A stretch of DNA of 64,000 nucleotides, taken from NCBI GenBank assembly GCA_947169285.1, contig CAMVPB010000001.1, positions 4,273-68,272 of the forward strand, in the 5' to 3' direction. The notes below the pieces were generated by a model, which worked only from the letters and a program-made list of their open reading frames with translations, made no database searches and was not told where the DNA came from. Both the position numbers and the translations under genes were made by a program. This document shows positions 831 to 35,128 of this stretch, piece after piece. The first letter of the stretch is position 1, and every line of letters begins with the position of its first letter. The DNA comes from an uncultured bacterium. GTDB lineage: Bacteria; Bacillota_I; Bacilli_A; RF39; UBA660.

Positions 831-905
831 TGGAGCAAGTAGTGGGAATCGGACCCGCATCTCAGCCTTGGCAAGGCCGCATAATAACCATTATACTATA
901 CCTGC
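831..905 (-). tRNA. tRNA-Gly (anticodon GCC)
   Basis: Reverse complement reads GCAGGTATAGTATAATGG...CCTTGCCAAGG...GGTCCGATTCCC...TACTTGCTCCA. It has a 7-bp acceptor stem, anticodon loop TTGCCAA, T-loop and encoded CCA. Confidence 0.9.
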
Positions 906-953: not shown

Positions 954-1799
954 TTATTCACTTTTAAATACTTTTAATGTTAATAATAAACCTAATATAA
1001 ACAAAATTATAGATATTATAATTTGAATTACATTTGTTTTATAACTAAATAAGCTTATAAATATTTCTATTATTGACGCAACTAAGAAACCTATAATTGC
1101 ATAATAAGTTTTTATTTCATGCTTTTTAAAAAGAAATTCAATTATTTTAGCAATTACTACTACTCCTATTACTACACCTATTCCAAAAGGAATTAGTATT
1201 ATTAAATTATTAGTTATATTATTAAATTTTATTAAATCTGATATTACTTTTAGTATTGGTTCATAGTAACCTAATATCATTAACATAAACGATCCACTTA
1301 TTCCAGGTACTACAAGTGTAGCTGCAGCTACTACTCCTATTAATACCAATTTAATTGACTGAATTAAATTAAATCCATTACTGAATATTACATCATTAGT
1401 CCCTTTAAATAAATAAACACCTAACACAATGGAAATTCCTAACAAAAAGAAAAATATATTAGATATCTTCAAAGTATTTCTTAAATCCACTTTTTTTATT
1501 AGTGACGGAATACTACCTATTAAAAGTCCAATAAAGAACAATATTGTTGGAATTGGGGCATGCTCAAATGTATAATTAAGTATCAATGCTCCTAATATTA
1601 ATGATGCAAGCACGCCTAAACCTAAATTTATAATAAATAATAAATTGTTCTTAAAATCTTTAAAAAAATGAGATATTGTGTTAATAATTTTTTCATATAA
1701 CCCTAATGAAATTGCAAGAGTTCCACCAGAAACACCTGGTATTATCATTGCTGAACCTAATATCATTCCTTTTAAAAATATAATTATTTTTTCTTTCAT
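954..1799 (-). CDS. DUF368-family membrane protein (family implicated in undecaprenyl-phosphate recycling, PopT-like)
   Basis: Polytopic membrane protein with the duplicated PG(V/I)SG(G/S) motifs (IIPGVSGGTLA and VVPGISGSFML) typical of DUF368. Its start overlaps the stop of the patatin gene. Confidence 0.7.
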   Translation of the reverse strand: MKEKIIIFLKGMILGSAMIIPGVSGGTLAISLGLYEKIINTISHFFKDFKNNLLFIINLGLGVLASLILGALILNYTFEHAPIPTILFFIGLLIGSIPSLIKKVDLRNTLKISNIFFFLLGISIVLGVYLFKGTNDVIFSNGFNLIQSIKLVLIGVVAAATLVVPGISGSFMLMILGYYEPILKVISDLIKFNNITNNLIILIPFGIGVVIGVVVIAKIIEFLFKKHEIKTYYAIIGFLVASIIEIFISLFSYKTNVIQIIISIILFILGLLLTLKVFKSE

Positions 1800-2839
1800 T
1801 AAAATTTCACCTTCAATTCTTTAATAAAATCTTTATATGGAGATTTTTTAAATTTGCTTAATATCTTTATTTTTATAATTAAAGTTGGAATATTATAAAC
1901 CTTAAATTTATCTATTTTATAAAATTTGCATATGTTTTCTAATGTATTAATAATTATTCTTTTATTATTAATTGTTAACCACTTATTATATTTTTTTAAT
2001 ATATTTTTATTAGTCAATATCTTATCATAATATTCTTCACTTTTATGTTTAAAATAGTATTCATTACCATCTAAATTATCAAGCACTTTTAATGTATCAA
2101 AATATCCTAATTTAATATTATAGTCTGTTATATCTTTACTAAAAGTTATAATTGATCCAAGTTTTTTATATGATTTTATTTCATATATTTTAGTTTTTGT
2201 TTTATATTTTGCTAATTTATCCCTGTGTGCCCTTACTACATAAATATTATCAAGCTTTTTATTAATTAACATATCAAGTGGACATTTATCATAAGCGCCC
2301 CCATCTAAATAATAATTTTCATCTATTATTTTTTTAAATTTAAATATTGGTAAATATGAACTGGCAAGTAAATACTCTATTAATTTACCTTTAGGTATAT
2401 CATTTTTAAACACTTGAATTTTTTTTGCTTTTGAAATATTGTATGTAGCAAGTCCATATTCAATATTACTTTTTCTAAGTTTATCTTCATCTATATTTTC
2501 TATTAACATATTTTTTAAATTAGTCGTATCTATACCTGCATTTTTTATAACTTGATAAATAGTTTGTAAGCCTTTTTTTATATTTTCTTTTGTTAAATTC
2601 TTATTTTTAAATGCATTAAATATGTTTTCATCTATTCCAAAAAGTTCTTTAGAACTAGCACTTCTCCATAAAGCTTCTAATTTGTCTAATTCATTTGTTA
2701 CTACAAAAACTCCATTTATAGAACCAATAGAAGTACCTACTACATAATCAAATTTTATATTTCTTTCTTTAAATGCTTTTAAAGCACCCACATGGTAAGA
2801 GCCTCTCGCTCCCCCGCCTTCTAATACAAGACCATTCAT
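1799..2839 (-). CDS. patatin-like phospholipase
   Basis: N-terminal GGGARG oxyanion motif, GTSIGS (GxSxG) nucleophile motif and a DGG(A) Asp motif. Confidence 0.85.
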   Translation of the reverse strand: MNGLVLEGGGARGSYHVGALKAFKERNIKFDYVVGTSIGSINGVFVVTNELDKLEALWRSASSKELFGIDENIFNAFKNKNLTKENIKKGLQTIYQVIKNAGIDTTNLKNMLIENIDEDKLRKSNIEYGLATYNISKAKKIQVFKNDIPKGKLIEYLLASSYLPIFKFKKIIDENYYLDGGAYDKCPLDMLINKKLDNIYVVRAHRDKLAKYKTKTKIYEIKSYKKLGSIITFSKDITDYNIKLGYFDTLKVLDNLDGNEYYFKHKSEEYYDKILTNKNILKKYNKWLTINNKRIIINTLENICKFYKIDKFKVYNIPTLIIKIKILSKFKKSPYKDFIKELKVKF

Positions 2840-2903: not shown

Positions 2904-4544
2904 TTATTTATTTTTTTTCAAAACTTTGTTTTTTATTCCAATAACTTTATTGTAATACTCTTCTCCGAATATAGAGCTAAACCCATTGTTTTTAAATAAC
3001 ATTATTAAATATATAGAACCTCCTATTATTGCATATAAAAGTAATACTAAAAATAATTTTATTCTAGATAAGCCTTCTAATGAAATAAAATGATTCAATA
3101 AAAATACTGGTATAGACATGCATAAAATTGGTAATATTAATTTCTTAATATTGTTAAACAATGGCCTAAAATCAATCTTTTCTTCTTTTGCTACACAACC
3201 TATTGAAATAGAAAGAGATATTATAAATCCTATTATGGTTGCAAATATTGCTCCATAAAATGGATAGATTCCTATTTTTGCACATAAATACATCAAAGGA
3301 ATATCAAGCGCTGCATTTGATGCAAAACCTGCTATTGTACACAAATATATTATTTTAAATTTATTTAATCCTTGAAGTGCTACATCTATTACTATATCAA
3401 GACTTGAGAAAAATGAAGTAAATACTAATATTCTCAAAATAATTCCGCCATACTCACTTGAACCATAGAACAATGTATAAACGCCTGTTGACAAAATAGA
3501 TATACCTATTGCAAGTGGCAATGTCACACCAAATATAACACTTAAAGCTTGATTAAACTTGCTATTTATTTCTTCTTTATCTTTTAATGCTCTACTTGCG
3601 GTCATATATGGCATAAGACTTATGCTTATTCCAGTAGCAATTGCATTTATTATAATACATATTTTTATTCCCCACGTAGAAATAATACTAGCAATTATCT
3701 CTGAATTCATTGTTGAATATCCCAAATGAGATAATCCTCTTATTACTAATGATTGATCTGTAATACTATAAATGTTAACACTTACTGAAACAATTATAAT
3801 TGGGATACAATATCTTATAATTTTTTTTATTATTTCTCTATTAGAAGCAATTTTTTTGCTCTTGGATTTTAATAAAAATTTATCCTTATTCTTATCTTTT
3901 TTAACTTTTAAAAACAAATATGCTCCTAGTGCTCCAAAGAAAGCACCAGATACAGCAACAGCAACCCCAGTAGTTACTGATGTGTTAAATATATTTATAG
4001 CTATATAAGAACCCATTAATATAACTGAAATTCTTATAATTTGCTCAATTATTTGAGACTTACTACTATCTTCTATATATTTATGCCCTTGTAAATATCC
4101 TCTTGTTAAACTTAAAAATGGAACTATTAATAAACAAAATGAGACGCTCTTTAATACAAGAGAAATATCATTTATATTATTACCGCCTTGTAATTTTCCA
4201 ATAAATATATATGCAAATTCTTTTGAAAAAACAAACAATATAAAGAATGAGATTATAGATAACATGAATATTATTTTTTTACCTAATTTATATGTTTTTT
4301 CTTTGCTCTCATACTCTTCTAACGCTGTATATTCACTTATTATTTTACTAATTGCAATAGGTATTCCAGAAGTAGAAATATTTAAAAGCAAACTATAAAC
4401 ATTGTATGCATAAGAGTATAATGTTCCACCTTCTTTTCCAATTATTGAATAAAAAGGAATAACATATAATGCGCCTAAAATTTTAACTATTATTATAGAA
4501 ATTGATGCAATTATTGTTCCCTCAACAAATGAATTTTTTTTCAT
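2904..4544 (-). CDS. MOP-superfamily flippase, MurJ(YtgP)/SpoVB-like
   Basis: 546 aa with about 14 TM segments. The N-terminus (GTIIASISIIIVKILGALYVIPF...GGTLYSYAYNVYSLLLNISTSGIPIAISKIISEY) resembles Bacillus YtgP/SpoVB. Confidence 0.75.
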   Translation of the reverse strand: MKKNSFVEGTIIASISIIIVKILGALYVIPFYSIIGKEGGTLYSYAYNVYSLLLNISTSGIPIAISKIISEYTALEEYESKEKTYKLGKKIIFMLSIISFFILFVFSKEFAYIFIGKLQGGNNINDISLVLKSVSFCLLIVPFLSLTRGYLQGHKYIEDSSKSQIIEQIIRISVILMGSYIAINIFNTSVTTGVAVAVSGAFFGALGAYLFLKVKKDKNKDKFLLKSKSKKIASNREIIKKIIRYCIPIIIVSVSVNIYSITDQSLVIRGLSHLGYSTMNSEIIASIISTWGIKICIIINAIATGISISLMPYMTASRALKDKEEINSKFNQALSVIFGVTLPLAIGISILSTGVYTLFYGSSEYGGIILRILVFTSFFSSLDIVIDVALQGLNKFKIIYLCTIAGFASNAALDIPLMYLCAKIGIYPFYGAIFATIIGFIISLSISIGCVAKEEKIDFRPLFNNIKKLILPILCMSIPVFLLNHFISLEGLSRIKLFLVLLLYAIIGGSIYLIMLFKNNGFSSIFGEEYYNKVIGIKNKVLKKNK

Positions 4545-4556
4545 ATCTACTCCTTT

Positions 4557-5249
4557 TTAAAAATTTAAATTTTCATATTCTTTTAACCTAGTATCATATG
4601 CTTTAATAATGCTGTTTTCAAATTTTAATTCATCTTTTAGTCCTAAAAGTTTAAGTATTTTTTTAGTAAAATATGGATTTTGAATTAAAATTGGTCCTAA
4701 AATTGTTGTTGCCATAAAATTGTTTTTTCTAATACCTTCATTAGATGTACTTTTATCATTACCCATACCTTTTATAGTCTTGAATAATGGCTCTTCATTA
4801 ATATTATAAAAATAACTAAATTGACTTTTAAAACCAACTATTTTAGTATTTTCATATTCTCCTAAATATAATTCATGATACCTATTTTCATAATCATATT
4901 TTGTATAAAAATTAAATATATTTAAACCTTCTATTTCTTTACCATTTCTATATATTGATTCCCCAAATATTTCTATAGCATTACCAGTAACTAAGAATAT
5001 TACCCCTTTTTCTATTAAAGATCTAATTTTGTCTTTATATGGTAATAATTTTTTAATAACAATTTCTTCTGTTCTTTCTGTCATTGAGCCTATATAAATC
5101 ATTTTAATATCCTCTTTTAAGAAAGCAGGAGTATTATTTAAATCAGTATTTATTATCTTTAATGAATTTGAACACATTGATAAATACTTAATATTAAAAC
5201 TATCTCCGTATAAGCCACAAACACTATCATATAAAACTTCTATTTTCAT
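4557..5249 (-). CDS. GatD/CobQ-type glutamine amidotransferase-like protein, apparently catalytically dead
   Basis: Size, position (4-nt overlap with the MurT-like gene) and colinear blocks (LYGD.., IYIGS, EGLNIFNF, IVGF, GPIL) match GatD. The nucleophile-elbow Cys is replaced (LVTGNAIEIFG) and HGP reads LGP. The only Cys residues are at positions 11 and 26. Confidence 0.65.
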   Translation of the reverse strand: MKIEVLYDSVCGLYGDSFNIKYLSMCSNSLKIINTDLNNTPAFLKEDIKMIYIGSMTERTEEIVIKKLLPYKDKIRSLIEKGVIFLVTGNAIEIFGESIYRNGKEIEGLNIFNFYTKYDYENRYHELYLGEYENTKIVGFKSQFSYFYNINEEPLFKTIKGMGNDKSTSNEGIRKNNFMATTILGPILIQNPYFTKKILKLLGLKDELKFENSIIKAYDTRLKEYENLNF

Positions 5250-7612
5250 TTTAATTCACCCATATTCTTTTTAATAATTTTTATCATTTCTTTTGATAAG
5301 TCATATGCAAATATGTCATGAACCAAATAAATCTCTTCTATATTCTTATAATCAATATAATTTGGTACTCTAAGTTCATCTTCTACTATAATTATTTTAT
5401 TTTTATCAATGCCTGCAATTAACATTCTAAGCAAGTAATCATTAGATCTTTTACCGCCAATTATAATTTTATTAATGTATTTAGAATTTAAATATTCAAA
5501 ATCAACATCATATATCCAAGAAACTATTTCACAAGAAGATTTTCTATCATTTACATCATCTAAAACAATTATTACATCTTTTTTCTTAATATCTTTTGAA
5601 ACCACATTTAAAGCTCCTGTTACTGCAATTGGATTTTGCCCTTTTGCCATAACACTTATTAATTCCAAATTATTGATTTTTTCGGTATAAAATCTGCTGT
5701 TAAGTAACAAAATATTTTTAAATGTATTATTAATATCTTTTTCAGTATATCCCATTTCTTGAAGTAATGAAATAGCACCTAAAGCATTATACATATTAGG
5801 AATATTTACATAAGTAAAATTATACATTTTTTTATTTAATATAAAATAATTTTCTTTAAAATTAATCTTTGTTATTTCATATTTGCATCTTGGTCTTTTA
5901 TATCCACATTTAATACAATTATATTTGCCTATGTGATGATATTTGTAATATTCATAGGTTAACTTTTCACCACATTTTGGACACAATACAACATCGTTTA
6001 CAATATTAATATTTTTTAAATTATCTGTTATTAATTTTTGCATGCCAAAATACACAGTATTATTATTTGATAATGTTACACATAAAGGATCATCAGCATT
6101 TATTATTAGTTTTGATTCTTTAGGAATTGCATTTAACAATTTATCTCTTATAAAATCAGGATTAGCATTATTTTTAATAGAATCTCTAAATAAATTATTT
6201 ATTATTATATAATCTGGTGTAATATTTTTAAATATTTTTTTAGATGTTAATTCATCCGTTTCTATTACAGCTATATCAGATTTTTGTTTATTAAATATTG
6301 AAACGGAATCAATTAAAAATGCAGTTACACCTAATGGGGTATTAAAGCCATTATTGTTGATAACTTTTTTATTATTCTTTTTGAAAAAATCAATTAGCAT
6401 TCCACATGTTGTGGATTTACCATTTGTTCCAGTTACTGAAATTATTTTTTCTGGTTTATTTAAATAGAAATTAAAATTTGGGCATATTCGAAGAGCTACA
6501 TCGCCAGCAACATAAGGAACTCTCTTCTTAATAATTTTAAGAAATATCTTAACAAGTTTACTTATCCATAAAGCTATAAAAAAGAAAAATTTATTATTTC
6601 TTTTAATTCTATTAGGATATATTATACTATCAAATAATATTTTCTTACCACACCCGTTTTCATCTAAATGTATTTTAGATTGATATAAATCATAGCCAGG
6701 TAAATTATTTCCTTCAATTAAAACTGGACCTTTATCAGTTATTGCAATATCCCACCCCACGTATCCGATTTCAGGGATAACTTCTGATGCTTTTTTTACA
6801 AAATTAATTATTTCTTCAAAATTATATATTCTAAAATTAATAACTGATTCTTTTGTTTCAGGATGAATGTAATATATGTTTCCATCCCTATCAATTGCCG
6901 GTTTACTTACTATTCCACACTCATCTAAAGTTGTATACATTCCGTCTTTATGAAAGTTATCTACTATGTTTCCTTTATTTCCAATTCTAAGTATTCTAGC
7001 AACAATGTGAGTATCACCATTAACTCTTAAAGTAACTATTCTAAGTGTATTAACAGAATGTGGATATAATTTAGATAAATAATCCTTTTGTATAACGCAT
7101 TCTTCTAATAAAAATTGTTTATTATTTTTTAAATTATCATATATTTCTTTTTCGTCCTTATTTATTGATACTTTTTTAACACCTACTCCACCAGTTCCAT
7201 TAAGTGGTTTAGCAATAAAAGTTTTATGTTTGTTCACAAATTTTTTAAATTCTTTAAAATCACATTTGTTTAAATTTAAATAATCTCTTTTAATAAAATC
7301 TCTAAATTTTTCATTAAATAAATCTTTATTATCAAAATACTTATAATACTTTCTATTATTTAATTTCTTTATATACTCATTATTTATACTTCTGGTTATA
7401 AACGTTTTTCTTTTTTTTCTTGAAACATTTTCAAAATTAAATAAATAGTAATCTACATATCCAGAGCCATAAAAAAATGAGCATAAAATTATATCAAAAA
7501 ATACTAATATTTTTAACTTATTACTTCTTTTACTTATTTTATCTAAAATTATAAAGAAATTTTTAAAATTTAAACCAAATAATCTTTTTATATAATATAT
7601 TATTTTATGCAT
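5246..7612 (-). CDS. fusion protein: N-terminal ATP-grasp (sugar-transfer-associated type) plus C-terminal MurT-like Mur ligase
   Basis: Residues about 1-335 carry ATP-grasp hallmarks (KPLNGTGGVGV, LLEECV, VLIEGNNLPG). Residues about 345-788 are colinear with MurT: P-loop SVTGTNGKSTT, four-Cys ribbon CPKCG..x..CIKCG, and the WIYDVDFE C-terminal block. Confidence 0.8.
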   Translation of the reverse strand: MHKIIYYIKRLFGLNFKNFFIILDKISKRSNKLKILVFFDIILCSFFYGSGYVDYYLFNFENVSRKKRKTFITRSINNEYIKKLNNRKYYKYFDNKDLFNEKFRDFIKRDYLNLNKCDFKEFKKFVNKHKTFIAKPLNGTGGVGVKKVSINKDEKEIYDNLKNNKQFLLEECVIQKDYLSKLYPHSVNTLRIVTLRVNGDTHIVARILRIGNKGNIVDNFHKDGMYTTLDECGIVSKPAIDRDGNIYYIHPETKESVINFRIYNFEEIINFVKKASEVIPEIGYVGWDIAITDKGPVLIEGNNLPGYDLYQSKIHLDENGCGKKILFDSIIYPNRIKRNNKFFFFIALWISKLVKIFLKIIKKRVPYVAGDVALRICPNFNFYLNKPEKIISVTGTNGKSTTCGMLIDFFKKNNKKVINNNGFNTPLGVTAFLIDSVSIFNKQKSDIAVIETDELTSKKIFKNITPDYIIINNLFRDSIKNNANPDFIRDKLLNAIPKESKLIINADDPLCVTLSNNNTVYFGMQKLITDNLKNINIVNDVVLCPKCGEKLTYEYYKYHHIGKYNCIKCGYKRPRCKYEITKINFKENYFILNKKMYNFTYVNIPNMYNALGAISLLQEMGYTEKDINNTFKNILLLNSRFYTEKINNLELISVMAKGQNPIAVTGALNVVSKDIKKKDVIIVLDDVNDRKSSCEIVSWIYDVDFEYLNSKYINKIIIGGKRSNDYLLRMLIAGIDKNKIIIVEDELRVPNYIDYKNIEEIYLVHDIFAYDLSKEMIKIIKKNMGELK

Positions 7613-7681: not shown

Positions 7682-8434
7682 TTAAATCCTTTTAACTTTA
7701 TTTAAGGTAATACCACATATTTCGCTTGATAAAGCAAATATGAAATATATTGGTAAATAAAATAGAAATCCTATTTTTAAAAATACTAATACTGAAAGAA
7801 TAAATATTAAAGCTAATAAAATAGGTACAATATATGAAAATCCAAATTTAGTTCCATATATTAACCCTTCTATAATTAAAATAAATGGATTCATGAATAC
7901 TATCGCTAAAAACTCTATAGAATTATAATACTCAAAAGGTATAATTCTTGAAATAAACAAAACAAAATTAAATAAAAACAATTCAATTATTATAAATATA
8001 AATATATACATTTCTTTAGTTAATTTATTTCTTTTTTTTACATCTACTTTTTTATTTATAAAAAACCAAAAATTATTTATTTTTTCTTTTATATTAATTT
8101 TTTTTGATTTTTTTTGAGTGTTTTTTTTCTTTTTAAAAATATTATATATTTTTTTTATATATTTATTTTTGGTGTTTCTTATTTTTTTTGCTTGATTAAT
8201 ATTATTTTTTCTTTCTGTACTTTTAATCTTTATTTTATTCTTTTTTTTAAAAAAATTCAAAAACTTTTTAAAAATATTTTTATTTTGTCTTTTTGATTTA
8301 GCTTTTTTATTTTTTAAAGTTGTTTTATTTATCTTTTTATTCTTTATGCTAGAAGAATTTTTTTTGACTACTTTATTACTATTCTTAACACTTTTTTGCA
8401 CTTGTTTATTTGCTCTTTTTTTATTCTTATTCAT
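7682..8434 (-). CDS. membrane protein with a ~140-aa extremely K/N-rich polybasic N-terminal region
   Basis: Lys/Asn low-complexity N-terminal half followed by about four hydrophobic helices. The DNA carries many long A/T homopolymer runs. Confidence 0.45.
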   Translation of the reverse strand: MNKNKKRANKQVQKSVKNSNKVVKKNSSSIKNKKINKTTLKNKKAKSKRQNKNIFKKFLNFFKKKNKIKIKSTERKNNINQAKKIRNTKNKYIKKIYNIFKKKKNTQKKSKKINIKEKINNFWFFINKKVDVKKRNKLTKEMYIFIFIIIELFLFNFVLFISRIIPFEYYNSIEFLAIVFMNPFILIIEGLIYGTKFGFSYIVPILLALIFILSVLVFLKIGFLFYLPIYFIFALSSEICGITLNKVKRI

Positions 8435-8632: not shown

Positions 8633-8959
8633 TTAAATTCCATTTTCTTTATAAAATATCATTTGTTGAGGTAACAAATATATTGTTTCATTTTGAGATA
8701 CTAAATCATTTTGAGATTTTCCAAATATTTTGCTAACTTCTTTTAAAGTATCATCATCTTTTGTTATATAGTATTGAACACCTTTTTTAGGTATTTTTAA
8801 AGTTTCATTAGGATAAATATAGTCATCTAATTTTAGGCCATTTAACTCTGCAATCAATTTAGGATTCATATTAAATTCTCTTGCAATTTTATAAAGAGTG
8901 TCTCCTGTTTTAATTACATAATAACTATAAAATGGAGTGTCTAAACTTTTTTCATTCAT
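8633..8959 (-). CDS. protein with two LysM domains
   Basis: Two LysM-like segments: YVIKTGDTLYKIAREFNMNPKLIAELNGL and YYITKDDDTLKEVSKIFGKSQNDLVSQN. Confidence 0.8.
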   Translation of the reverse strand: MNEKSLDTPFYSYYVIKTGDTLYKIAREFNMNPKLIAELNGLKLDDYIYPNETLKIPKKGVQYYITKDDDTLKEVSKIFGKSQNDLVSQNETIYLLPQQMIFYKENGI

Positions 8960-8999: not shown

Positions 9000-10088
9000 T
9001 TATTGATTATAAAGGTATATTATGTTATTTTCATTAAAATTAAGTTCAAAATAATTAAATATTTTACTTAATTTATCTGGAGTATATTTATAAAATTTAT
9101 CTTCACAAGTGAAATATAAAATATTTTTATATTCTCCAATTATTTTAATATTGTTACCTTCAAATATCTTCATTTTTAATTTATCTTCCAAATATATCTT
9201 ATATAATGAATCATCTACAATTTCATACCTGTAATTAGAATTACTTTTTTCAGAATAAGTTATATTCCTATTTCTATATTCACTTAAATTTACATAAACT
9301 TTTTTTTCGTTTTCATATTTGTAATATCCTAATTCTTCAGAACCAACAAGTTGTATTCTTAATCTTCTCAAATCAATTTCATATAGTTTTAATTCTTTTA
9401 TATCAAATAAATATATCTTTTTATCTATAGAACCAACTATATATGAATTGTAACTTATTTCATATTTAGATTCTATAATACTCATCTTGTTGTTTACCAT
9501 ATTTATTAAATAAAATTTATTGAATTCATATTCTTGATTATAATCTGGGAATAGTATTTTGTTATCTATTTTATACATTAAACTATTGTCGTATTTACCT
9601 TCATTAAATAAATCTAATGTTTCTAAATTTTTATTATTCATTTGATAAAAACCTTTGTAATTCCATAAATATACATATTCTTTAGTTGTTAAATTATTAT
9701 TAAAGTAAAAATTACCATTTGAATCATATTTTTTTTGAATTTTATACTTATTTAACGCTTCATCATCTATTAATTTAAAATCTACATATTCATCATTATA
9801 ATAACATAATGGATATGTATTAACACCTTTTATTTCTGGATATAAACACTCTAAATTATTTGACGTTATTTCTTTGATTTTATTTATTTTAAGTTTAGAA
9901 AAACTCCTTTTTTTATAAATATCAAAATTATATTTATTATCAATACTAATATAAAATCTCTTATTTTTATATATTGTAATAATCTTGTGATTATCTAAAG
10001 AATAAGTAATTTTATAATTAGATGAAAAATACTTTATAATTATCAATAAAAATAAGAACAAGAAAATAATACAAATATTTTTTTTCAT
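9000..10088 (-). CDS. hypothetical exported or membrane-anchored protein
   Basis: N-terminal signal/anchor (KKNICIIFLFLFLLIII), then a Y/N/K-rich sequence with no recognised motif. Confidence 0.5.
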   Translation of the reverse strand: MKKNICIIFLFLFLLIIIKYFSSNYKITYSLDNHKIITIYKNKRFYISIDNKYNFDIYKKRSFSKLKINKIKEITSNNLECLYPEIKGVNTYPLCYYNDEYVDFKLIDDEALNKYKIQKKYDSNGNFYFNNNLTTKEYVYLWNYKGFYQMNNKNLETLDLFNEGKYDNSLMYKIDNKILFPDYNQEYEFNKFYLINMVNNKMSIIESKYEISYNSYIVGSIDKKIYLFDIKELKLYEIDLRRLRIQLVGSEELGYYKYENEKKVYVNLSEYRNRNITYSEKSNSNYRYEIVDDSLYKIYLEDKLKMKIFEGNNIKIIGEYKNILYFTCEDKFYKYTPDKLSKIFNYFELNFNENNIIYLYNQ

Positions 10089-10139
10089 ACAATACCACCT
10101 ATTTATATTATAAAAAAAACTTTAATATTTTTAAAGTTT

Positions 10140-10577
10140 TTATTTAATTGCACCAGCTTCTTTTAAGAAAGTTAATGTCATTTCTTTATCCATTTCACCT
10201 GTATGAGTATCAATTACTTTTCCTTTATTAGATATAGCTATGTATGGGGAAGATCCAGAATATCCATAAGGTTCAAATGTTTCATATAAGTAATCACTAT
10301 CATCTTTAGATAACGCATCAATATCAAACCAATATAATGGCAACTTGTATTCTTTAGATATATTTTTTATAATTGGTCTAAAATTATGACAATGGCTACA
10401 ATAAGTAAGAGCAATTACAGTAACTGCATATTCATCTTTTGCAAAGTTTTCTTTAAAATCATCCAACTTAGTTTCAGATTTTCTAGAGCTTTCAATTAAT
10501 ACTGATAAAAGAACAAAAACTAATACTGCTAAAGCTACTATTATAATACCTTTATATTTTTCAAAAATTTTTTTCAT
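10140..10577 (-). CDS. membrane-anchored thioredoxin-fold thiol-disulfide oxidoreductase
   Basis: N-terminal TM anchor plus a CxxC active site (TYCSHCHNF) in a thioredoxin-sized domain. Confidence 0.75.
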   Translation of the reverse strand: MKKIFEKYKGIIIVALAVLVFVLLSVLIESSRKSETKLDDFKENFAKDEYAVTVIALTYCSHCHNFRPIIKNISKEYKLPLYWFDIDALSKDDSDYLYETFEPYGYSGSSPYIAISNKGKVIDTHTGEMDKEMTLTFLKEAGAIK

Positions 10578-10623
10578 TTTAACACCTCATATATTATGAT
10601 AAACTATTAAAACACAAAATTCA

Positions 10624-10656
10624 ACAAAAAAGATGAAATTCAAATGAATTTCATCT
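10624..10656 (-). terminator. intrinsic terminator after the Cys-rich protein gene
   Basis: AGATGAAATTC-loop-GAATTTCATCT followed by a T run on the minus strand. Confidence 0.7.
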
Positions 10657-10659
10657 ATA

Positions 10660-12180
10660 TTAATTAACTTTAACAGTTCTTGTTTTTCCTGTTGCTGTCC
10701 ATCCTTCTAATGTTTTTAATCTACTCCATTTTGTTTCTGTTGATTTTATTTCTTTTGTTGATGAAGTAGCTTTAACTGTATCAAATATATCTTTGCTACA
10801 AGTTCCATTTTTACTATTTAAATTATATCCTTTTGGACAACTATAATGAGAAAATTGACTAGGAATTGTCAAAACACACTTACCATTCTTAATTACAAAA
10901 CTTGAATTTGCACAGTAAGGAATTTTTTCTCCTTCAACCTTTTTATAGCATTTTAGATTAGCACCAGTTTTTCCATTATTTGAAGTAGCTTCCTTTGGAC
11001 AACTATATGTAACTTTTTCAGTATTTATATTTTTATAACATTTAGTACTTGATCCTGATCCTTCTTGAATTAAACCAGCTCCACAACTATATGTTGTTGT
11101 TGTTACGTTTTTGTAACACTTTAAACTTGATCCTGATCCTTCTTCTTTGTATCCGCTTGGACAACTATATGTTGTTGTTGTTACGTTTTTATAACATTTA
11201 GTACTTGATCCTGATCCTTCTGCTTTATATCCACTTGGACAAACATAAGCAGTTGAATCTGTACATACTTTATGAACAATATAACCACATGTGTTACATA
11301 CTTCTCTAGGAATTCCATCAGATCCTGTTTCCCATTTGCATTCAACCTTACAATTTGGATCTTTTATTCTTTCATCATGACAATCTTGAGTTACTTTTTT
11401 ATTTACATCAGTGTATTTCTTTTCTGTTTTAGTATTTGTTATTTTTTCTTTGTATTCTTTTGTTGATGATGTATTTACTGTAACATCAACATATTGCTTT
11501 TTTGTTTCTGTAGTTACTTTCTTTAAAGCTGCAATTTCAATTGTTTGAATTGCCCCTGTTGTATATAAAACATTTGAATATTCTATTTTTTCATCTGTGT
11601 AATTCTTTGTTGCATTTATAGTTTCACTACCAGTTTTTTTACTACAAATATTACCATTTCTGTTATATCCTTTTGGACAACTTAATTCAGTAACATTTTT
11701 TGTAATTGTTCTAGTAAATTCATATTCAATAGCTGTCTTATCTTTAGAAACATTACAATTATTACAATAATCATGACAACCTAATATTTCTATTATATAG
11801 TTACTTTCTTTTCCACAAACTAGATTTACTTTCAAAGTATATCCTAATTCTTCTTTTGTAACTTCTGCATAAGACTTATTTACATCACAAGATTTACCAT
11901 CCTTGTCAACAAAAGGAATTAATAATTTCATTTCTTCCATTTGTTTTAAAGTTAATCTTACTGACTTACCAACTTCTGTTGGAAGTTGATCATTTGTAAA
12001 ATAGCTTTTTGCAGCATCTTGCATATATGAAACATTTTCTCTAAAAACATTATTATAGAAAGGTTTCATATTAGGTGAATAATTTCTGAATAGCCATATT
12101 AATAATAATACGAATAAAGCAATTAATATAATACTTAAAATTAATGAACTTAATCCAAATCCTTTTTTATTTGTATTCAT
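10660..12180 (-). CDS. Cys-rich repeat surface protein with an N-terminal membrane anchor
   Basis: N-terminal hydrophobic anchor and about 25 Cys by my count. About seven copies of a Y-x-C-P-x-G-Y..(G/S-rich)..K-C-Y-K module, three of them near-identical. Confidence 0.6.
   Translation of the reverse strand: MNTNKKGFGLSSLILSIILIALFVLLLIWLFRNYSPNMKPFYNNVFRENVSYMQDAAKSYFTNDQLPTEVGKSVRLTLKQMEEMKLLIPFVDKDGKSCDVNKSYAEVTKEELGYTLKVNLVCGKESNYIIEILGCHDYCNNCNVSKDKTAIEYEFTRTITKNVTELSCPKGYNRNGNICSKKTGSETINATKNYTDEKIEYSNVLYTTGAIQTIEIAALKKVTTETKKQYVDVTVNTSSTKEYKEKITNTKTEKKYTDVNKKVTQDCHDERIKDPNCKVECKWETGSDGIPREVCNTCGYIVHKVCTDSTAYVCPSGYKAEGSGSSTKCYKNVTTTTYSCPSGYKEEGSGSSLKCYKNVTTTTYSCGAGLIQEGSGSSTKCYKNINTEKVTYSCPKEATSNNGKTGANLKCYKKVEGEKIPYCANSSFVIKNGKCVLTIPSQFSHYSCPKGYNLNSKNGTCSKDIFDTVKATSSTKEIKSTETKWSRLKTLEGWTATGKTRTVKVN
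11035..11270 (-). repeat. three near-identical tandem ~81-bp coding repeats inside the Cys-rich protein gene
   Basis: Repeated DNA gatcctgatccttct...ggacaactatatgttgttgttgttacgttttt encodes CPSGYK(A/E)EGSGSS(T/L)KCYKNVTTTTYS. Confidence 0.8.
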
Positions 12181-12198
12181 AACTAAAACCCCCTTACC

Positions 12199-13494
12199 TT
12201 ATTTTAAAACCTTAACATTTTCTTGAGCTTTTGTATCTAACATATGTTTTAAATCTTGATATGTTTCACCAAATACATTGATAACTTCTCCACTTCTTAA
12301 AACAGAGATTTCACCATTTTTACTTGTTCCCATATATAATGCTTCAAATATATCTCTTACTTCAACTAATTTGTATTCTTGTGTTTCTGGATTATAACAT
12401 GTTTCAATACATACAGTTAAATCATTTGCTTCTAAATATTCTCTTACATAATTTGAAAATCTACTTGTTGCAGCTTGTAATAAGAAATAATGTTCTTCAT
12501 CTGAGAATAAATATGGATTCCATCCACCATATAAACCAGCTAAATGCCATTCATTATATAGTTTAGAACCTAATACACCAACTTGTTCAATAAATCCATC
12601 AACATTTTCTTCAGCTCTATATTCAGCTATTTTATTATATATTTCATCATAAGTTTCAACATATTCAGCTTCTTTAGAACCATCTTCATATAATTTAGAA
12701 AAATGTACTGGATATAATTTGTTTCCTAAACCTCTATTAGCAAAAATATCATTCATCATATTTGCTGTTTCACCAATTGTATAATCATCATATTCACTAT
12801 TTAATGGTAATTCACCATTAGCTACTCTAATAATATCCTCAATATTTTCTTTAGTTACTAATCCTGTATAAACTGAATCATTTTCAGATTCTACAATTGG
12901 GTTAATATCTTCAGATAAAATACGATCTGCTGCCATTTCAACATCTTCAACATTTGTAACATCAACTAAAACTGGTACTGCTGTTGGTTGTGGTGTTACA
13001 ACAGGTGTTGCAGTCACAACAGGTGTTGATGTTACTATTACAACTTCATTTGTTGCCTCTGGTATTTCAGTAGTTAAAGAAATTGATTTATCAGGGTTAG
13101 CACTTTTAGAACTACATTTTGTATCCTTATTACATCTTCCAATAGCAAATGCTAATGTAGCAACAGCTAATACACCTGCGACTCCTGCAATCAATTTACC
13201 TCTTTTTGATCTTTTTGTTTGCTTTTCTTGTTCAAGTTCTTCATCTGCAAGTTTTTTTGACTCATTTTCTAGTTTTTCATATTCATCATAGATGTTATCA
13301 AGTTCACCGTCTATTTCATCAAGTCTACGTCTAATTTCAGTTTCTTTTCTTAATTCTTCTTTTGTCAATTCAGAAACTCTCCTTGACTGAGTTAGATTAT
13401 TTAATTCAATTCTTAAGTCCCCAATTTCTGAATTTAAAAGATCTTCTCTACTTTGAAGTATAGCATACTTTTCATTAATTTCTTCTTGTGTCAT
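12199..13494 (-). CDS. hypothetical bitopic protein: coiled-coil, TM helix, T/V/P-rich linker, C-terminal globular domain
   Basis: Charged coiled-coil N-terminus, TM helix (LIAGVAGVLAVATLAFAI), linker TSTPVVTATPVVTPQPTAVPV, then about 230 aa of unrecognised domain. Only 18 nt upstream of the Cys-rich protein gene. Confidence 0.55.
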   Translation of the reverse strand: MTQEEINEKYAILQSREDLLNSEIGDLRIELNNLTQSRRVSELTKEELRKETEIRRRLDEIDGELDNIYDEYEKLENESKKLADEELEQEKQTKRSKRGKLIAGVAGVLAVATLAFAIGRCNKDTKCSSKSANPDKSISLTTEIPEATNEVVIVTSTPVVTATPVVTPQPTAVPVLVDVTNVEDVEMAADRILSEDINPIVESENDSVYTGLVTKENIEDIIRVANGELPLNSEYDDYTIGETANMMNDIFANRGLGNKLYPVHFSKLYEDGSKEAEYVETYDEIYNKIAEYRAEENVDGFIEQVGVLGSKLYNEWHLAGLYGGWNPYLFSDEEHYFLLQAATSRFSNYVREYLEANDLTVCIETCYNPETQEYKLVEVRDIFEALYMGTSKNGEISVLRSGEVINVFGETYQDLKHMLDTKAQENVKVLK

Positions 13495-26740: not shown

Positions 26741-29263
26741 ATGATAAAAAGGTTTTTTAAAAATTATTATATAGAAATATTATCTTTTCTTATTCCAATG
26801 ATTATATTTTTAATGGCTTGCGCTTTTAATAAAATATATCCTTTTGGGGAAAATTATATAGTTGCTTATGATGGATCAGCTCAATATCCTGGGTTTACTA
26901 ATATATTAATGAACGCACTAAAAGGTAAACAAAGTTTATTCTATACATTTAAAGGAGGCCTTGGATATAACTTCTATGCTACTGCAATATACTATTTATT
27001 TAACCCAACTAATTTATTAGCGATTTTCTTTAATTCTGATAATACAATGATATTCTATGAACTAATAATATTTTTAAGAATTGGATTATGTGGATTAACA
27101 ATGTCTATATATTTAAGAAATAAAGAAAAATTAAATAAAGGAAGATTATTATTTAGTATTGCCTATGCCTTAATGGCTTATAATGTAGTATATTTTTATA
27201 ACTTTATGTATTTTGATACAGTTGTACTCCTACCTTTAGTTATATTAGGTCTTGATAAATTAATTGAAGGTAAAAGTTCTAAAACTTATATTATATTTTT
27301 AACTTTATCAATTATTTCAAATTATTATATAGGATCAATGGTATGCATATTTAGTTTATTATATTTTATCTATAAATACATAATAATCGATAAAAAGAAA
27401 AGAAAAGGACTTATAAAAAAGTTTATAATATCATCTCTACTTAGTGGACTTATGTGTGCTTTTGTATTAATACCAGAGTTCTTTGAATTAATGAGAGGTA
27501 AGGTTGACTTGTATCATCAAGAATATACTGTATATAATAAATGGAGTATGGACTTTTTATCTTCTTTTTATAGATTATCAATTGCATCTTATAGTAATAG
27601 AGATCAAATAGATGGAGCTCCTAATATATATTGTTCTTTACTAGTTTTAGTTTATACAATACTATTCTTCTTTAATAAAAAATATACTCTAAAAGAAAGA
27701 ATCGCTACTTTAGTATTCATATGTTTCTTCTTATTATGCTTTAGTTTTAACTTTTTAGATTATGCTTGGCAATTTTTCCAAAAACCTTGTTGGTATCCTA
27801 ATAGATATAGTTTTGTATTTTCTTTCTTACTTATTATTACAGCTTATAAAGCATATAATAATACAGAAAAAATTAAAATTAATAATAAATTATTATATTT
27901 AATCATTGCGTTATTAATAATTACTATTATAGGAGCTGCTTTTTATGAAAAAATATATGATAAAGGAATTGTTAAATTTATATTCTTGGCTTTATCTATT
28001 ATATGTGTCATAGAATACTCTTTTAGCTATAAAATTAAATTATTACCTTTTTTAATAACAACTATATTTTTATTTGAAGTCACTGCCAATACACTTCTTT
28101 CAGTTAGAGAGATTGGATTTGCTAAAAAAACAACCACTTATGATGAAACTTATAATGATATTAAAGAAACATTTAATTATATAGAAAAAATAGATCCTAT
28201 TAAAAATAATTTTTATAGATCTGATTCACAATCATGGACAAATATAAACAACCCTGGTACTTATAATTATAATGGACTTTTAGTATTTGACTCTGTTAGA
28301 AATGGAGCATTAATGCATTTCTTAGAATATTATGCTAAATACTCTGTTACTGATGAATGTTCAACTAGATTTAATGCCTTAAATCCGGTATTCACTTCAA
28401 TGCTTGGATTCAAATATATTGTAACAGGATCTAATCAAAACTATTATGAAAATATCAATGAAGAATTAAGATATAAAGTCTATAAAAATAATGAATACTT
28501 ATCTCTAGGTTTTATGGTAAACAGCGGGTTTAAAAACATTATATTACAGGAAAAAGAGCCTTATGAAAACACAAGCGAAATAATTAATAAAAGTATAAAC
28601 AAAGATCTAAATATATTTAAAAAAGATACTTATTCTTTAATAGAAAAGTATAAAGAGGATGATGAATACATTTATTACGATGCAAGTGTTGGTGGAGATG
28701 TATTATTTAGTGGAACGGCAGATAAAGATTACCTAATATTTCCTAACCCAAATCATGATAGCAATACTAGTAATTTTATGTATGTAAATGGTGGGGCTGA
28801 TATATATTATAATAATTTTACCCCTTACCTAATAAAAAAAGACACAAATTATACTATGAAATTTGTAACAAATGCAGAAAAAACTAGCAAAGATAAATTG
28901 TTTGTATATTTAATGAATATTGACGCTTATAAATCTTGGATAGAAGAAATAAAGAAGAATCAATTAGAAATAATTACGTATAAAAAAGATAATTATATAA
29001 AAGGCAAAATTAATGTTACAAAAGATAAAACAACATTATTTACATCTATTCCTTATGATGAAGGATGGAGAGTATTTGTTGATGGTAAAAAGGTAAAATA
29101 TGATAAATTATTAACTGCATTTATAGGAGTTGATTTAACTGAAGGAGAACATATAATTGAATTTAAATATATTCCTAAAGGATTTATAATTGCTTCAGTG
29201 ATTTCGCTTATATCTTTATTAGGGACAGCATTTTATATTAGAAAGCAAAAAACTGCTAAGTAA
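26741..29263 (+). CDS. YfhO-family polytopic membrane protein (GT-C-type glycosyltransferase family)
   Basis: 840 aa: an N-terminal ~430 aa with many TM helices, a large extracytoplasmic domain and a C-terminal TM helix, the typical YfhO architecture. Divergent from paralog 1. Confidence 0.7.
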   Translation: MIKRFFKNYYIEILSFLIPMIIFLMACAFNKIYPFGENYIVAYDGSAQYPGFTNILMNALKGKQSLFYTFKGGLGYNFYATAIYYLFNPTNLLAIFFNSDNTMIFYELIIFLRIGLCGLTMSIYLRNKEKLNKGRLLFSIAYALMAYNVVYFYNFMYFDTVVLLPLVILGLDKLIEGKSSKTYIIFLTLSIISNYYIGSMVCIFSLLYFIYKYIIIDKKKRKGLIKKFIISSLLSGLMCAFVLIPEFFELMRGKVDLYHQEYTVYNKWSMDFLSSFYRLSIASYSNRDQIDGAPNIYCSLLVLVYTILFFFNKKYTLKERIATLVFICFFLLCFSFNFLDYAWQFFQKPCWYPNRYSFVFSFLLIITAYKAYNNTEKIKINNKLLYLIIALLIITIIGAAFYEKIYDKGIVKFIFLALSIICVIEYSFSYKIKLLPFLITTIFLFEVTANTLLSVREIGFAKKTTTYDETYNDIKETFNYIEKIDPIKNNFYRSDSQSWTNINNPGTYNYNGLLVFDSVRNGALMHFLEYYAKYSVTDECSTRFNALNPVFTSMLGFKYIVTGSNQNYYENINEELRYKVYKNNEYLSLGFMVNSGFKNIILQEKEPYENTSEIINKSINKDLNIFKKDTYSLIEKYKEDDEYIYYDASVGGDVLFSGTADKDYLIFPNPNHDSNTSNFMYVNGGADIYYNNFTPYLIKKDTNYTMKFVTNAEKTSKDKLFVYLMNIDAYKSWIEEIKKNQLEIITYKKDNYIKGKINVTKDKTTLFTSIPYDEGWRVFVDGKKVKYDKLLTAFIGVDLTEGEHIIEFKYIPKGFIIASVISLISLLGTAFYIRKQKTAK

Positions 29264-33958: not shown

Positions 33959-35128
33959 ATGAAAAAAATAATTTTAATAATTACCATATTATTTTTATTT
34001 GGATGTTCTCCTAAAAATAAAGAAGTCGTTCTTATAACAAATATAAATGTAAAAAAAGATACAATTGAATATTATGAAAAAGTAAATCTTTATGATTTAA
34101 TTGAAATTGAAAATGGAACTATTATAGATGAAAACTATTCAATCAACACAAAAGAATTAGGTGAACAAGAAATAATTATTAAATATAAAGATTCAAATAA
34201 AGATATATCAACATATAAATTTAATATTTCAGTTAATGATACAACTCCACCACTTATATTCGCATCTAAAAAGTACTCAGTTGAAAAAAATGATAAAAAA
34301 TTTAATTTAATTGATAAAGTAGTATGTGGAGATAACTATGATAGAGAGATAAAATGTGAAATAGAAGGTACATATGATATTAATAAACTCGGAGAATATC
34401 CAGTTAAAATAACATCCACTGATACACACGGTAATACTACTTCTAAAGATTCAATTGTAGTTGTTAAAGATAAAATAAAAAACAGTGATCCTACTTATTA
34501 TTATTTAAAAGATTTTATAGAAAAATATAAAACAAATGATACAACAATAGGAATAGATGTTTCAACTTGGCAAGGAACTATTGATTGGAATAAAGTTAAA
34601 TCTTCTGGTGTGGATGCAGCAATGATAAGAATTGGATATGGTTCAAAAAATAAAAGTACGATGGATAAAAAATTTAAAGAAAATATTAAAAATGCTAAAA
34701 ATGCAGGTATAAAAGTAGGAATATATTATTATAGTTATGCCAATGATATAAATGAAGCTATTAACCAAGCCAAATGGATAATGAGTGTGTTAAATGGTGA
34801 AAAACTAGATCTTCCAATCGCATTTGATTGGGAAGATTGGTCAGACTTTATGAGCTATAAAATAAATTTTAATGATTTAAATGACATTGCTAATTCTTTT
34901 ATGGAAGAAATAGAAAAAAACGGATATAAAGCAATTAATTATGGAAGTGCTAGATATATGGAACAAGTATGGGATACTCCAAAATATCCAACATGGCTTG
35001 CATATTATACTGATAACAATGACTTTGAAGAAGAATATATAATGTGGCAAGTAGCAAGTGATGGAATTGTTCCTGGAATAAATGGTTATGTTGATTTAGA
35101 TATAATAAAAAATACTATCTTTGAATAG
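33959..35128 (+). CDS. lipoprotein with a C-terminal GH25 muramidase domain
   Basis: Lipobox LFLFGC. The C-terminus GIDVSTWQGTIDWNKVKSSGVDAAMIRIGYG is a GH25 signature. The N-terminal part looks Ig-like. Confidence 0.8.
   Translation: MKKIILIITILFLFGCSPKNKEVVLITNINVKKDTIEYYEKVNLYDLIEIENGTIIDENYSINTKELGEQEIIIKYKDSNKDISTYKFNISVNDTTPPLIFASKKYSVEKNDKKFNLIDKVVCGDNYDREIKCEIEGTYDINKLGEYPVKITSTDTHGNTTSKDSIVVVKDKIKNSDPTYYYLKDFIEKYKTNDTTIGIDVSTWQGTIDWNKVKSSGVDAAMIRIGYGSKNKSTMDKKFKENIKNAKNAGIKVGIYYYSYANDINEAINQAKWIMSVLNGEKLDLPIAFDWEDWSDFMSYKINFNDLNDIANSFMEEIEKNGYKAINYGSARYMEQVWDTPKYPTWLAYYTDNNDFEEEYIMWQVASDGIVPGINGYVDLDIIKNTIFE

Follow-up and report, generated by a model that had tools for sequence, protein, structure and literature searches.

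A MurT/GatD derivative without the glutaminase triad, coupled to an ATP-grasp ligase, as a candidate system for substituting peptidoglycan precursors

In a stretch of 64,000 nucleotides (nt) from an uncultured bacterium of the RF39 lineage of Bacilli (contig CAMVPB010000001.1, positions 4,273 to 68,272; G+C ∼24%), which we call the window, two overlapping genes encode a relative of the lipid II amidating enzyme MurT/GatD, fused to a second ligase. The first gene carries an ATP-grasp domain and a MurT-like Mur ligase in one chain, and the second encodes a GatD-like protein without the catalytic Cys and His. We have coined the name GatDx for such a Cys/His-less GatD, and MurTx for its MurT-like partner. 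Our interpretation, to which we give a slightly better than even chance, is that the locus encodes a glutamine-independent MurT/GatD derivative plus a second carboxylate-amine ligase, putting one or two amino acids or amines on a lipid-linked peptidoglycan precursor. The locus represents, in one fused form, a module of three components that is both widespread and conserved, and the parts of which lie in the window as follows (aa, amino acids).

6578..7612, minus strand: ATP-grasp ligase domain, aa 1-345 of the fusion, ATPgrasp_ST family, PF14397.
5246..6577, minus strand: MurT-like Mur ligase (MurTx) domain, aa 346-788 of the fusion; Pfam Mur_ligase_M and MurT_C.
4557..5249, minus strand: GatDx, with the GatD fold and with the glutaminase Cys and His absent (alignments, AlphaFold2 model).

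The GatDx open reading frame (ORF; 4557-5249, minus strand) encodes 230 aa, matches GATase_3 at 33 bits, and scores 75 and 60 bits with the NCBIfam GatD equivalogs NF052463 and NF045636, the cutoffs of which are 450 and 400. Its AlphaFold2 model (pLDDT 95.8) has S. aureus GatD (6gs2_A) as best structural match, at a Foldseek TM of 0.87, and includes at residues 211-226 the extra C-terminal helix that contacts MurT; judged by this model, GatDx is a true GatD fold and homologue. A preliminary description of the locus had stated that Cys occurs only at residues 11 and 26, and that both the nucleophile elbow and the HGP site are lost. The comparison with S. aureus GatD confirms this. In the HMMER alignment to 5n9m and 6gs2, Gly89 stands at Cys94 (VTGNAIE versus TICGGYQ) and Leu184 at His189 (ILGPIL versus LHGPIL), Arg123 is the kept equivalent of Arg128, and the only His is residue 125. 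MAFFT and hmmalign reproduce the HMMER register at the Cys94 and His189 columns. We rejected a mis-registered alignment as the explanation, given that phmmer to the PDB, MAFFT and hmmalign agree, and that there is no spare Cys or His to substitute.

There is also a third loss, which the earlier reading missed: the position of MurT Asp349 is Ile in the fusion (SCEIVSW), with a conserved Glu just before it. Asp349 completes the inter-subunit triad in S. aureus, where activity is lost in GatD C94G and C94S and severely reduced in MurT D349N (PMC6113224), and where GatD C94A, H189A and R128A abolish glutaminase activity (PMC5871853). Since Cys94, His189 and Asp349 are all replaced, and since the corresponding S. 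aureus mutants are dead or severely reduced, glutamine hydrolysis by the canonical mechanism is, as judged from the alignments, excluded for the window system. By the same comparison, the annotation 'glutamine-hydrolysing lipid II isoglutaminyl synthase' is inappropriate for its proteins.

The loss extends well beyond the window. A GatDx profile search of 1.84 billion cluster representatives returned 334 clusters at 50% identity (E≤1e-30). Among the best 150 of these 334 representatives, the Cys is absent from 149, the His is absent from 149, and none has both; Arg128 is kept in 138/150, and an Asn follows the former Cys position in 137/150. All of the 120 closest homologues of the window GatDx (44-100% identity) are without Cys and His at the catalytic columns, as are all 28 of the GatDx proteins that stand beside MurTx in the loci we fetched, and 120 of 120 Microbacteriaceae homologues; in the latter the Cys column holds His, and the His column Ile, Leu or Val. 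The preliminary statement that glutamine hydrolysis looks impossible thus applies to the whole GatDx family, which is without the triad; the S. aureus mutants C94G, C94S and H189A are inactive.

The residue at the Cys column of GatDx varies (G, S, H, N, A, T, Y, I), and the elbow consensus is T-H-N in actinobacterial members, versus T-G-N elsewhere. The best-conserved columns of the family (in S. aureus numbering G59, T93-G94-N95, R128, E176-G177, N182, T186 and G190-P191) map onto the old GatD active-site architecture. To us the pocket looks selected for a new role rather than decaying, and the pattern of conservation indicates that selection acts on the loss of the triad, which the whole family shares. 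The earlier suggestion that the dead GatD is merely structural is probably wrong, because few parts of the family are as well conserved as the former active-site pocket, in which Thr-Gly-Asn is new and Arg128 is kept.

One explanation for a conserved pocket is that GatDx is still a hydrolase, using another nucleophile (Thr or Asn of the T-G-N elbow, or the His in Actinobacteria) to free ammonia or an amine from some other donor. Elbow residues Thr88 and Asn90 are indeed conserved along with the pocket, and His does occupy the Cys position in actinobacterial members. However, the Cys-column residue is variable while the rest of the family is conserved, and we know of no class I amidotransferase that works without a Cys nucleophile. 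Given also that C94S and C94G are dead in S. aureus (PMC6113224), we regard this explanation as very improbable.

Returning to GatDx as a protein without hydrolase activity, we propose as its signature T-[GSH]-N where canonical GatD has x-C-G, [LIV]-G-P where it has H-G-P, and a kept Arg128. As the criterion for a GatDx/MurTx system we propose a gatDx gene that adjoins, or is fused to, a MurT-like ligase without Asp349. The window locus fits the family consensus at every signature position. Many Microbacteriaceae GatDx proteins (P0251, P0254, P0266 and others; P and L numbers are our handles for proteins and loci) are labelled 'lipid II isoglutaminyl synthase (glutamine-hydrolysing)' by JGI, which is probably a systematic misannotation.

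Every GatDx that could be placed adjoins a MurTx ligase. The P-loop, the E108 motif, the Cys4 ribbon and NxYN are intact in all MurTx, the Asp349 column (n=28) is T, I or N, and the residue preceding it is always acidic (Glu 27 times, Asp in L037). In four of the 150 representatives (P0367, P0391, P0400 and P0478; 698-758 aa) MurTx and GatDx form a single chain, and the existence of these fusions confirms, as far as gene fusion can, that MurTx and GatDx still act as a complex.

In the window, the ORF that encodes MurTx (5246-7612, minus strand) is a single chain of 788 aa with no internal stops. Pfam places Mur_ligase_M at aa 393-536 and MurT_C at aa 659-765 (E 6e-22, 78 bits), and phmmer aligns aa 346-757 with S. 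aureus MurT (7q8e/6gs2) at E 5e-56. The claim that the MurT-like protein keeps its P-loop, four-Cys ribbon and C-terminal domain is borne out: the P-loop GTNGKST and the IETDE motif (the E108 equivalent) are intact, and the zinc ribbon C544/C547/C566/C569 aligns with that of S. aureus and is invariant among the fusions. The NCBIfam MurT equivalogs NF052464 and NF045635 have a cutoff of 800 bits, of which the fusion reaches 202 and 160. The MurT half scores 256 bits against MurTx of Pseudolysinimonas kribbensis versus 193 bits against S. aureus MurT, and by this measure is nearer to actinobacterial MurTx than to S. aureus MurT.

A survey of the fusion finds it in ten 90%-identity clusters, including that of the window, from independent assemblies, and in one GTDB metagenome-assembled genome (MAG; L012). 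The nine further clusters (P0002-P0010) share 43-84% identity; eight are full-length at 785-790 aa, and P0010 is a partial of 673 aa. It is true that in five loci (L015, L020, L021, L023 and L041) ATP-grasp and MurTx are separate overlapping ORFs, as one would expect if the fusion were a mis-assembly or frameshift of two genes, and a decayed GatD could similarly be a pseudogene remnant. Against this, the ORF is uninterrupted and the same architecture recurs in independent assemblies, while GatDx is full length, gives a high-confidence model and is conserved across phyla. We reject both possibilities, and consider artefact or decay to be effectively refuted.

The other half of the fusion was correctly described as a sugar-transfer-associated ATP-grasp domain in the same 788-aa chain: ATPgrasp_ST (PF14397) covers aa 77-312, with E 4e-51 and 174 bits against a cutoff of 31. 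Its Mg-binding E300-x-N302, together with K135, E170 and D288, is invariant in homologues, and the helical ∼110 aa at its N-terminus are family-specific. A PDB sequence search gave no match to the ATP-grasp part of the fusion. With its AlphaFold2 model (pLDDT 89.9), Foldseek against the PDB gave RimK, BacD/YwfE, Ddl, GshB and LysX as best matches (E 6e-8 to 1e-5), at TM values of 0.40-0.46 to the closest solved folds. All of these are enzymes that ligate a carboxylate with an amino acid or peptide through the amino group of the latter.

Standalone ATPgrasp_ST genes (n=108) have RpiB as their commonest neighbour (9), followed by a flippase (5-6), EPSP_synthase-family (MurA-type) genes (3) and DD-carboxypeptidase (2), so that the cell-wall signal around them is weak. 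A standalone 507-aa relative of the window ATP-grasp (P0043, 45% identity) follows a PASTA-domain protein and a glucosaminidase in L002 (5887-9299), which is another cell-wall context of the same ATP-grasp clade.

ATPgrasp_ST, MurTx and GatDx co-occur, fused, overlapping or neighbouring, in several lineages: Erysipelotrichaceae-like Bacilli, some Clostridia, Helcococcus sueciensis, and Microbacteriaceae including the cultured P. kribbensis. The low-GC window itself has its relatives among MAGs labelled Erysipelotrichaceae-like or 'uncultured Bacilli'. It is important to note that the 80 scanned loci were picked by ATP-grasp patterns and are biased towards ATP-grasp, so that they give no co-occurrence frequencies; nine loci anchored on GatDx or MurTx (L001, L009, L095-L098 and L099-L101) were added against that bias. 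The genes are separate but overlapping ORFs in the order ATP-grasp, MurTx, GatDx in L015, L020, L021, L023 and the Propionibacteriaceae MAG L041, and follow the order MurTx, GatDx, ATP-grasp in L033, L050, L057 and H. sueciensis DSM 17243 (L076), the last of which has two ATP-grasp genes. In Anaerovoracaceae/Oscillospiraceae MAGs (L032, 5906-11144; L052, 5921-11144) two MurTx-GatDx pairs flank one ATP-grasp gene, giving three ligases in a row, and both GatDx copies are without Cys and His. L004 and L012 have an additional ATP-grasp gene beside the fusion. The number of ligases per locus ranges from 1 to 3.

In Microbacteriaceae the arrangement is rpoD-MurTx-GatDx followed by a convergent ATPgrasp_ST gene, and is seen in two P. 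kribbensis assemblies and in the widespread marine 'Leifsonia'. The window ATP-grasp domain is colinear with ATPgrasp_ST of P. kribbensis (32% identity, E 4e-72). Because the window domains match those of P. kribbensis in this way, and in the 256-bit match of MurTx, the sequences support orthology of the three components across two phyla. The occurrence of both kinds of fusion, and of overlapping or adjacent genes in many orders, argues that the parts are physically and functionally coupled.

Other enzymes accompany MurTx at two of five Firmicute loci, anchored on GatDx or MurTx, with no ATP-grasp gene near. A class III aminotransferase lies directly upstream and is translationally coupled in Clostridium sp. 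CAG:793-like genomes (L009-L011, 4350-5600), and an Orn/DAP/Arg-type decarboxylase lies directly upstream in L100 (4284-5582). These amine-producing enzymes may supply the nucleophile. Around the module in Clostridia and Actinobacteria, most genes are housekeeping ones.

The module of the window belongs to a tight gene string on the minus strand, which runs tRNA-Cys, Lys/Asn-rich ORF, fusion, GatDx, flippase, patatin, DUF368, tRNA-Gly(GCC). Its further features are listed below.

8494-8476, minus strand: terminator-like hairpin between tRNA-Cys and the Lys/Asn-rich ORF, upstream of the latter.
7682..8434, minus strand: Lys/Asn-rich membrane protein, 69 nt upstream of the fusion; no Pfam match.
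2904..4544, minus strand: MOP-family flippase, SpoVB/MurJ-like (Pfam Polysacc_synt, E 1e-25; MatE; weak MurJ).
1799..2839, minus strand: patatin-like phospholipase (Pfam PF01734, E 7e-29).
954..1799, minus strand: DUF368/VCA0040-like membrane protein of an undecaprenyl-phosphate translocase-like family (Pfam PF04018, E 2e-45).
831-905, minus strand: tRNA-Gly(GCC), directly 3' of the DUF368 gene and before a terminator-like hairpin at 756-735.

The stop of the fusion and the start of GatDx overlap in ATGA, and the flippase gene begins 12 nt downstream of GatDx. Its product matches NCBIfam spore_V_B at E 2e-35, under the family cutoff, and Pfam MurJ at 21 bits versus a cutoff of 27. A flippase also stands beside the module in L004-L008, L012 and L092-L094. 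The patatin gene is kept within the same string in the close relatives L007, L008 and L093, and the DUF368 gene, which overlaps the patatin gene by 1 nt, is likewise syntenic in close relatives. Between flippase and patatin, close relatives carry a PAP2 gene of the undecaprenyl-pyrophosphate phosphatase type (L007, 12715-13368; L092, 14714-15346; L093, 8099-8731). In the window this interval is a 64-nt gap (2839-2904) without PAP2, the gene having been lost, or never gained, in the window lineage. Further afield, a strong MurJ match (233 bits) adjoins the module in Helcococcus, and BacA is nearby in L033. The flippase, the PAP2 of the relatives, DUF368 and the MurJ and BacA neighbours are the gene set of the lipid II and undecaprenyl-phosphate cycle, and it is because of these neighbours that we infer a lipid-linked peptidoglycan precursor as the substrate.

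An alternative is that the acceptor is not peptidoglycan at all, and that the ligases put amino acids on some other undecaprenyl-linked glycopolymer (wall polysaccharide, a teichoic-type polymer or capsule), which a Wzx-like flippase then exports. The Pfam names 'sugar-transfer associated ATP-grasp' and 'Polysaccharide biosynthesis protein' (the flippase) invite this view, as do the sub-cutoff MurJ match of the window flippase and the weak enrichment of peptidoglycan genes around standalone ATPgrasp_ST. The genomic setting is less favourable to it: the window operon contains no glycosyltransferase, the Microbacteriaceae module lies between rpoD and parE/parC, far from glycosyltransferase clusters, and the MurJ match that adjoins the module in Helcococcus is a strong one. 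Moreover, the substrates known to us for MurT_C-type ligases are lipid II for MurT (PMC6113224) and, going by NCBIfam and PDB family names, a pseudomurein peptide. We consider a non-peptidoglycan acceptor to be quite unlikely.

The remaining features of the window have a looser connection to the module. The Lys/Asn-rich ORF (7682-8434) encodes 250 aa, very Lys/Asn-rich in the N-terminal half and hydrophobic in the C-terminal half, and found no family match in the Pfam search; the slot upstream of the fusion in relatives holds shorter unannotated ORFs of 144-215 aa. It may be the first gene of the transcription unit, and whether it belongs to the system is uncertain. The tRNA-Gly(GCC) may be co-transcribed with the cell-wall string, although nothing ties it to a role in the wall. 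Promoter-like matches in the window are at chance level (85 versus 79 expected) and were not used. Upstream of the string, window positions 9000-13494 (minus strand) hold a conserved block of Pfam-less proteins that is syntenic in L007 and L092, and which includes a 506-aa protein (10660-12180) that has a hydrophobic segment near its N-terminus and repeats of Cys-containing motifs, CP.GY..EGSGSS.KCYKN. Beside these proteins are a thioredoxin-like protein (10140-10577) and a LysM protein (8633-8959). An L,D-transpeptidase (YkuD) with two SH3 domains lies at 37036-38304 on the minus strand, and near it are a GH25 muramidase (33959-35128) and a YfhO-family protein (26741-29263). The organism is walled, and may have non-4-3 cross-links.

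From the domains, the loss of the triad, the ligase motifs, their conservation and the co-occurrence of the genes we infer the substrate, the nucleophile, the order of the steps and a link to B-type walls, as follows. MurTx would activate a stem-peptide carboxylate with ATP as an acyl phosphate, most likely the alpha-carboxyl of D-iso-Glu in the lipid-linked precursor, a reaction established for MurT (PMC6113224). The nucleophile would be the amino group of an amino acid or amine, with no ammonia delivered by a glutaminase. GatDx, probably not merely structural given the conservation of its pocket, would most likely bind and present the nucleophile in the former glutamine site, or at least be an obligatory structural partner; the presenting site is predicted to comprise Arg128 and Thr-Gly-Asn of GatDx together with the MurTx Glu that precedes the Asp349 position. 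The fused ATP-grasp would make a second amide bond, either extending the added residue or adding to another carboxylate. The result would be a substituent of one or two residues on a modified precursor, which the adjacent MOP flippase may then export. The preliminary description had proposed a rewired ligation, possibly in two sequential steps. This now has comparative support, in the family-wide loss of the triad and in the presence of the trio in B-type lineages.

The simplest alternative is that amidation persists with another source of nitrogen: MurTx would make iso-glutamine from free NH3/NH4+, GatDx would serve as a folding or closure scaffold, and the ATP-grasp would carry out some unrelated modification. 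Synthase subunits of amidotransferases often take free ammonia, many carriers come, by their sample names, from ammonia-rich guts or the rumen, and GatDx has kept both the GatD fold and the C-terminal helix that contacts MurT. Several observations make us sceptical. Strong conservation of the former active-site pocket (T-G-N or T-H-N, with Arg128 kept) is unexpected for a mere scaffold. GatDx is just as conserved in aerobic soil and aquatic Microbacteriaceae, the documented genera of which are B2-type (PMC5945732), and in B-type walls the bridge occupies the alpha-carboxyl of D-Glu (for B1delta, PMC4062643). In some lineages amine-producing enzymes are coupled upstream, and the recurrence of a second ligase, fused or coupled, points to a joint pathway. 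We consider ammonia-dependent amidation unlikely, if less so than the other alternatives.

What, then, might the substituent be? As chemical entities, substituents of the D-Glu alpha-carboxyl have been on record since the Schleifer-Kandler scheme, and include glycine, D-Ala-amide, diamines and the whole B-type bridge; B-type walls in general carry the interpeptide bridge at this position. To our knowledge, and in the open literature that we searched, no enzymes have been assigned to any of these substituents. Erysipelotrichaceae and Microbacteriaceae are the classic B-type peptidoglycan groups. We find the module in P. kribbensis, other Microbacteriaceae and Erysipelotrichaceae MAGs, and also in Oscillospiraceae, Anaerovoracaceae, Helcococcus, a Propionibacteriaceae MAG and CAG-793-like Bacilli. 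It is the sharing of the trio by the distant Erysipelotrichaceae-like and Microbacteriaceae lineages that leads us to propose the module as a builder of B-type bridges; the substituent in these two groups would then correspond to the interpeptide bridge of B-type walls, as in D-Glu(alpha)-Gly-L-Lys. Erysipelothrix rhusiopathiae and Holdemania have B1delta peptidoglycan, with two residues on the D-Glu alpha-carboxyl, in Holdemania filiformis (L-Ala)-D-Glu-L-Asp-L-Lys (PMC4062643), and two residues on D-Glu would take two ligations. Walls of type B2beta or B2gamma occur in several genera of Microbacteriaceae (PMC5945732).

In its full form, our proposal is that MurTx/GatDx, with or without ATPgrasp_ST, are the enzymes for amino-acid, peptide or diamine substituents on the D-iso-Glu alpha-carboxyl of lipid II, including the B-type (2->4) bridge, that GatDx is a pseudo-glutaminase presenting the amino acid, and that the number of ligase modules per locus (1-3) sets the length of the substituent. 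We offer this tentatively, and would expect it to fall short in some part rather than to hold as a whole. Several points weigh against it. The further carriers (Clostridia, Tissierellia, Propionibacteriaceae and CAG-793-like Bacilli) are a weak point, there being no B-type walls on report for them. A second weak point is that the bridge of B2gamma Microbacteriaceae is a single residue and the ATP-grasp is still there, so that a rule of one ligase per residue fails in places. The trio is not universal: many MurTx/GatDx pairs stand without an ATP-grasp, which is absent within 7-8 kb at five Firmicute loci anchored on GatDx or MurTx, and this partner is lineage-specific. ATPgrasp_ST and Polysacc_synt are by name polysaccharide-associated families, and free ammonia is a possible nucleophile. 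The safer, broader statement is that the system attaches a non-ammonia substituent to a stem-peptide carboxylate, with a B-type bridge, a diamine or a single residue as possible outcomes.

In the open literature, we found no paper that ties MurT/GatD to B-type walls, or that describes a Cys-less GatD or a function for ATPgrasp_ST; subscription-only literature lies outside this search and may hold a prior description. The Bulleidia genome paper treats the MurT of Erysipelotrichales as an ordinary amidating enzyme. The module provides concrete and widespread candidate genes for D-Glu substituents, present in the cultivable P. kribbensis and H. sueciensis, which makes an old question testable. 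If our interpretation is right, GatDx would clearly exemplify how a glutaminase subunit can give up catalysis and become a partner that binds a ligand. Hundreds of proteins are now annotated 'lipid II isoglutaminyl synthase (glutamine-hydrolysing)' or 'glutamine amidotransferase' and yet should be unable to hydrolyse glutamine. Where such annotations serve to predict that gut Firmicutes and Actinobacteria have an amidated, NOD-evading peptidoglycan, the prediction would be wrong.

Among known systems, the closest is MurT/GatD itself (EC 6.3.5.13; S. aureus 6gs2/6h5e, S. pneumoniae 6fqb, S. pyogenes 9sq9). The window shares with it the two-gene order with overlapping stop and start, the Mur ligase central domain, Cys4 ribbon, MurT_C, P-loop and E108 motif of MurTx, and, in GatDx, the GatD fold (TM 0.87) with its extra C-terminal helix. 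It differs in having Gly for Cys94, Leu for His189 and Ile for Asp349 of MurT, in scores far under the equivalog cutoffs, and in the second ligase, an ATP-grasp that is fused or adjacent in the new system. The archaeal pseudomurein ligases pMurC/D/E are likewise MurT-related Mur ligases, which, as read from NCBIfam and PDB family names, add amino acids. They are archaeal, have no GatD-like subunit and are of lower similarity to the window protein (pMurC, 89 bits). The existence of an archaeal MurT-like clan without a GatD partner (PMC11915815) means that relatives of MurT can function without a glutaminase.

For the ATP-grasp domain, the nearest solved folds are RimK and BacD/YwfE, and RimK and BacD extend a free carboxylate with an amino acid; the distance is considerable (TM 0.40-0.46, identity 12-18%), and the ∼110-aa N-terminal region of the window domain is unrelated to them. 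The D-Asp ligase AslA/Aslfm, which builds the peptidoglycan cross-bridge in Lactococcus and Enterococcus, is also an ATP-grasp carboxylate-amine ligase, and adds a bridge residue to the cytoplasmic peptidoglycan precursor (PMC4155827). Unlike the window protein, it is of another ATP-grasp family, targets the epsilon-amino group of L-Lys-3 (an A-type bridge) rather than D-Glu, and has no Mur-ligase or GatD partner.

In cyanophycin synthetase, CphA1, the two domains take turns in forming the amide bonds of a single growing peptide, which makes it, by analogy of architecture, the best mechanistic model for two sequential ligations. Like the fusion, CphA1 has an ATP-grasp followed by a Mur ligase in one chain, in the same order (PMC11915815). 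The two are not orthologous: TIGR02068 matches only the P-loop of the fusion (aa 390-417), at 19.9 bits against a cutoff of 850, and the Mur part of the window protein is of the MurT type, with zinc ribbon, MurT_C and a GatD-like partner, while its ATPgrasp_ST has N-terminal helices of its own. With AslA-type D-Asp ligase and cyanophycin synthetase as precedents, the two-ligation chemistry that we propose for the window system would be quite ordinary.

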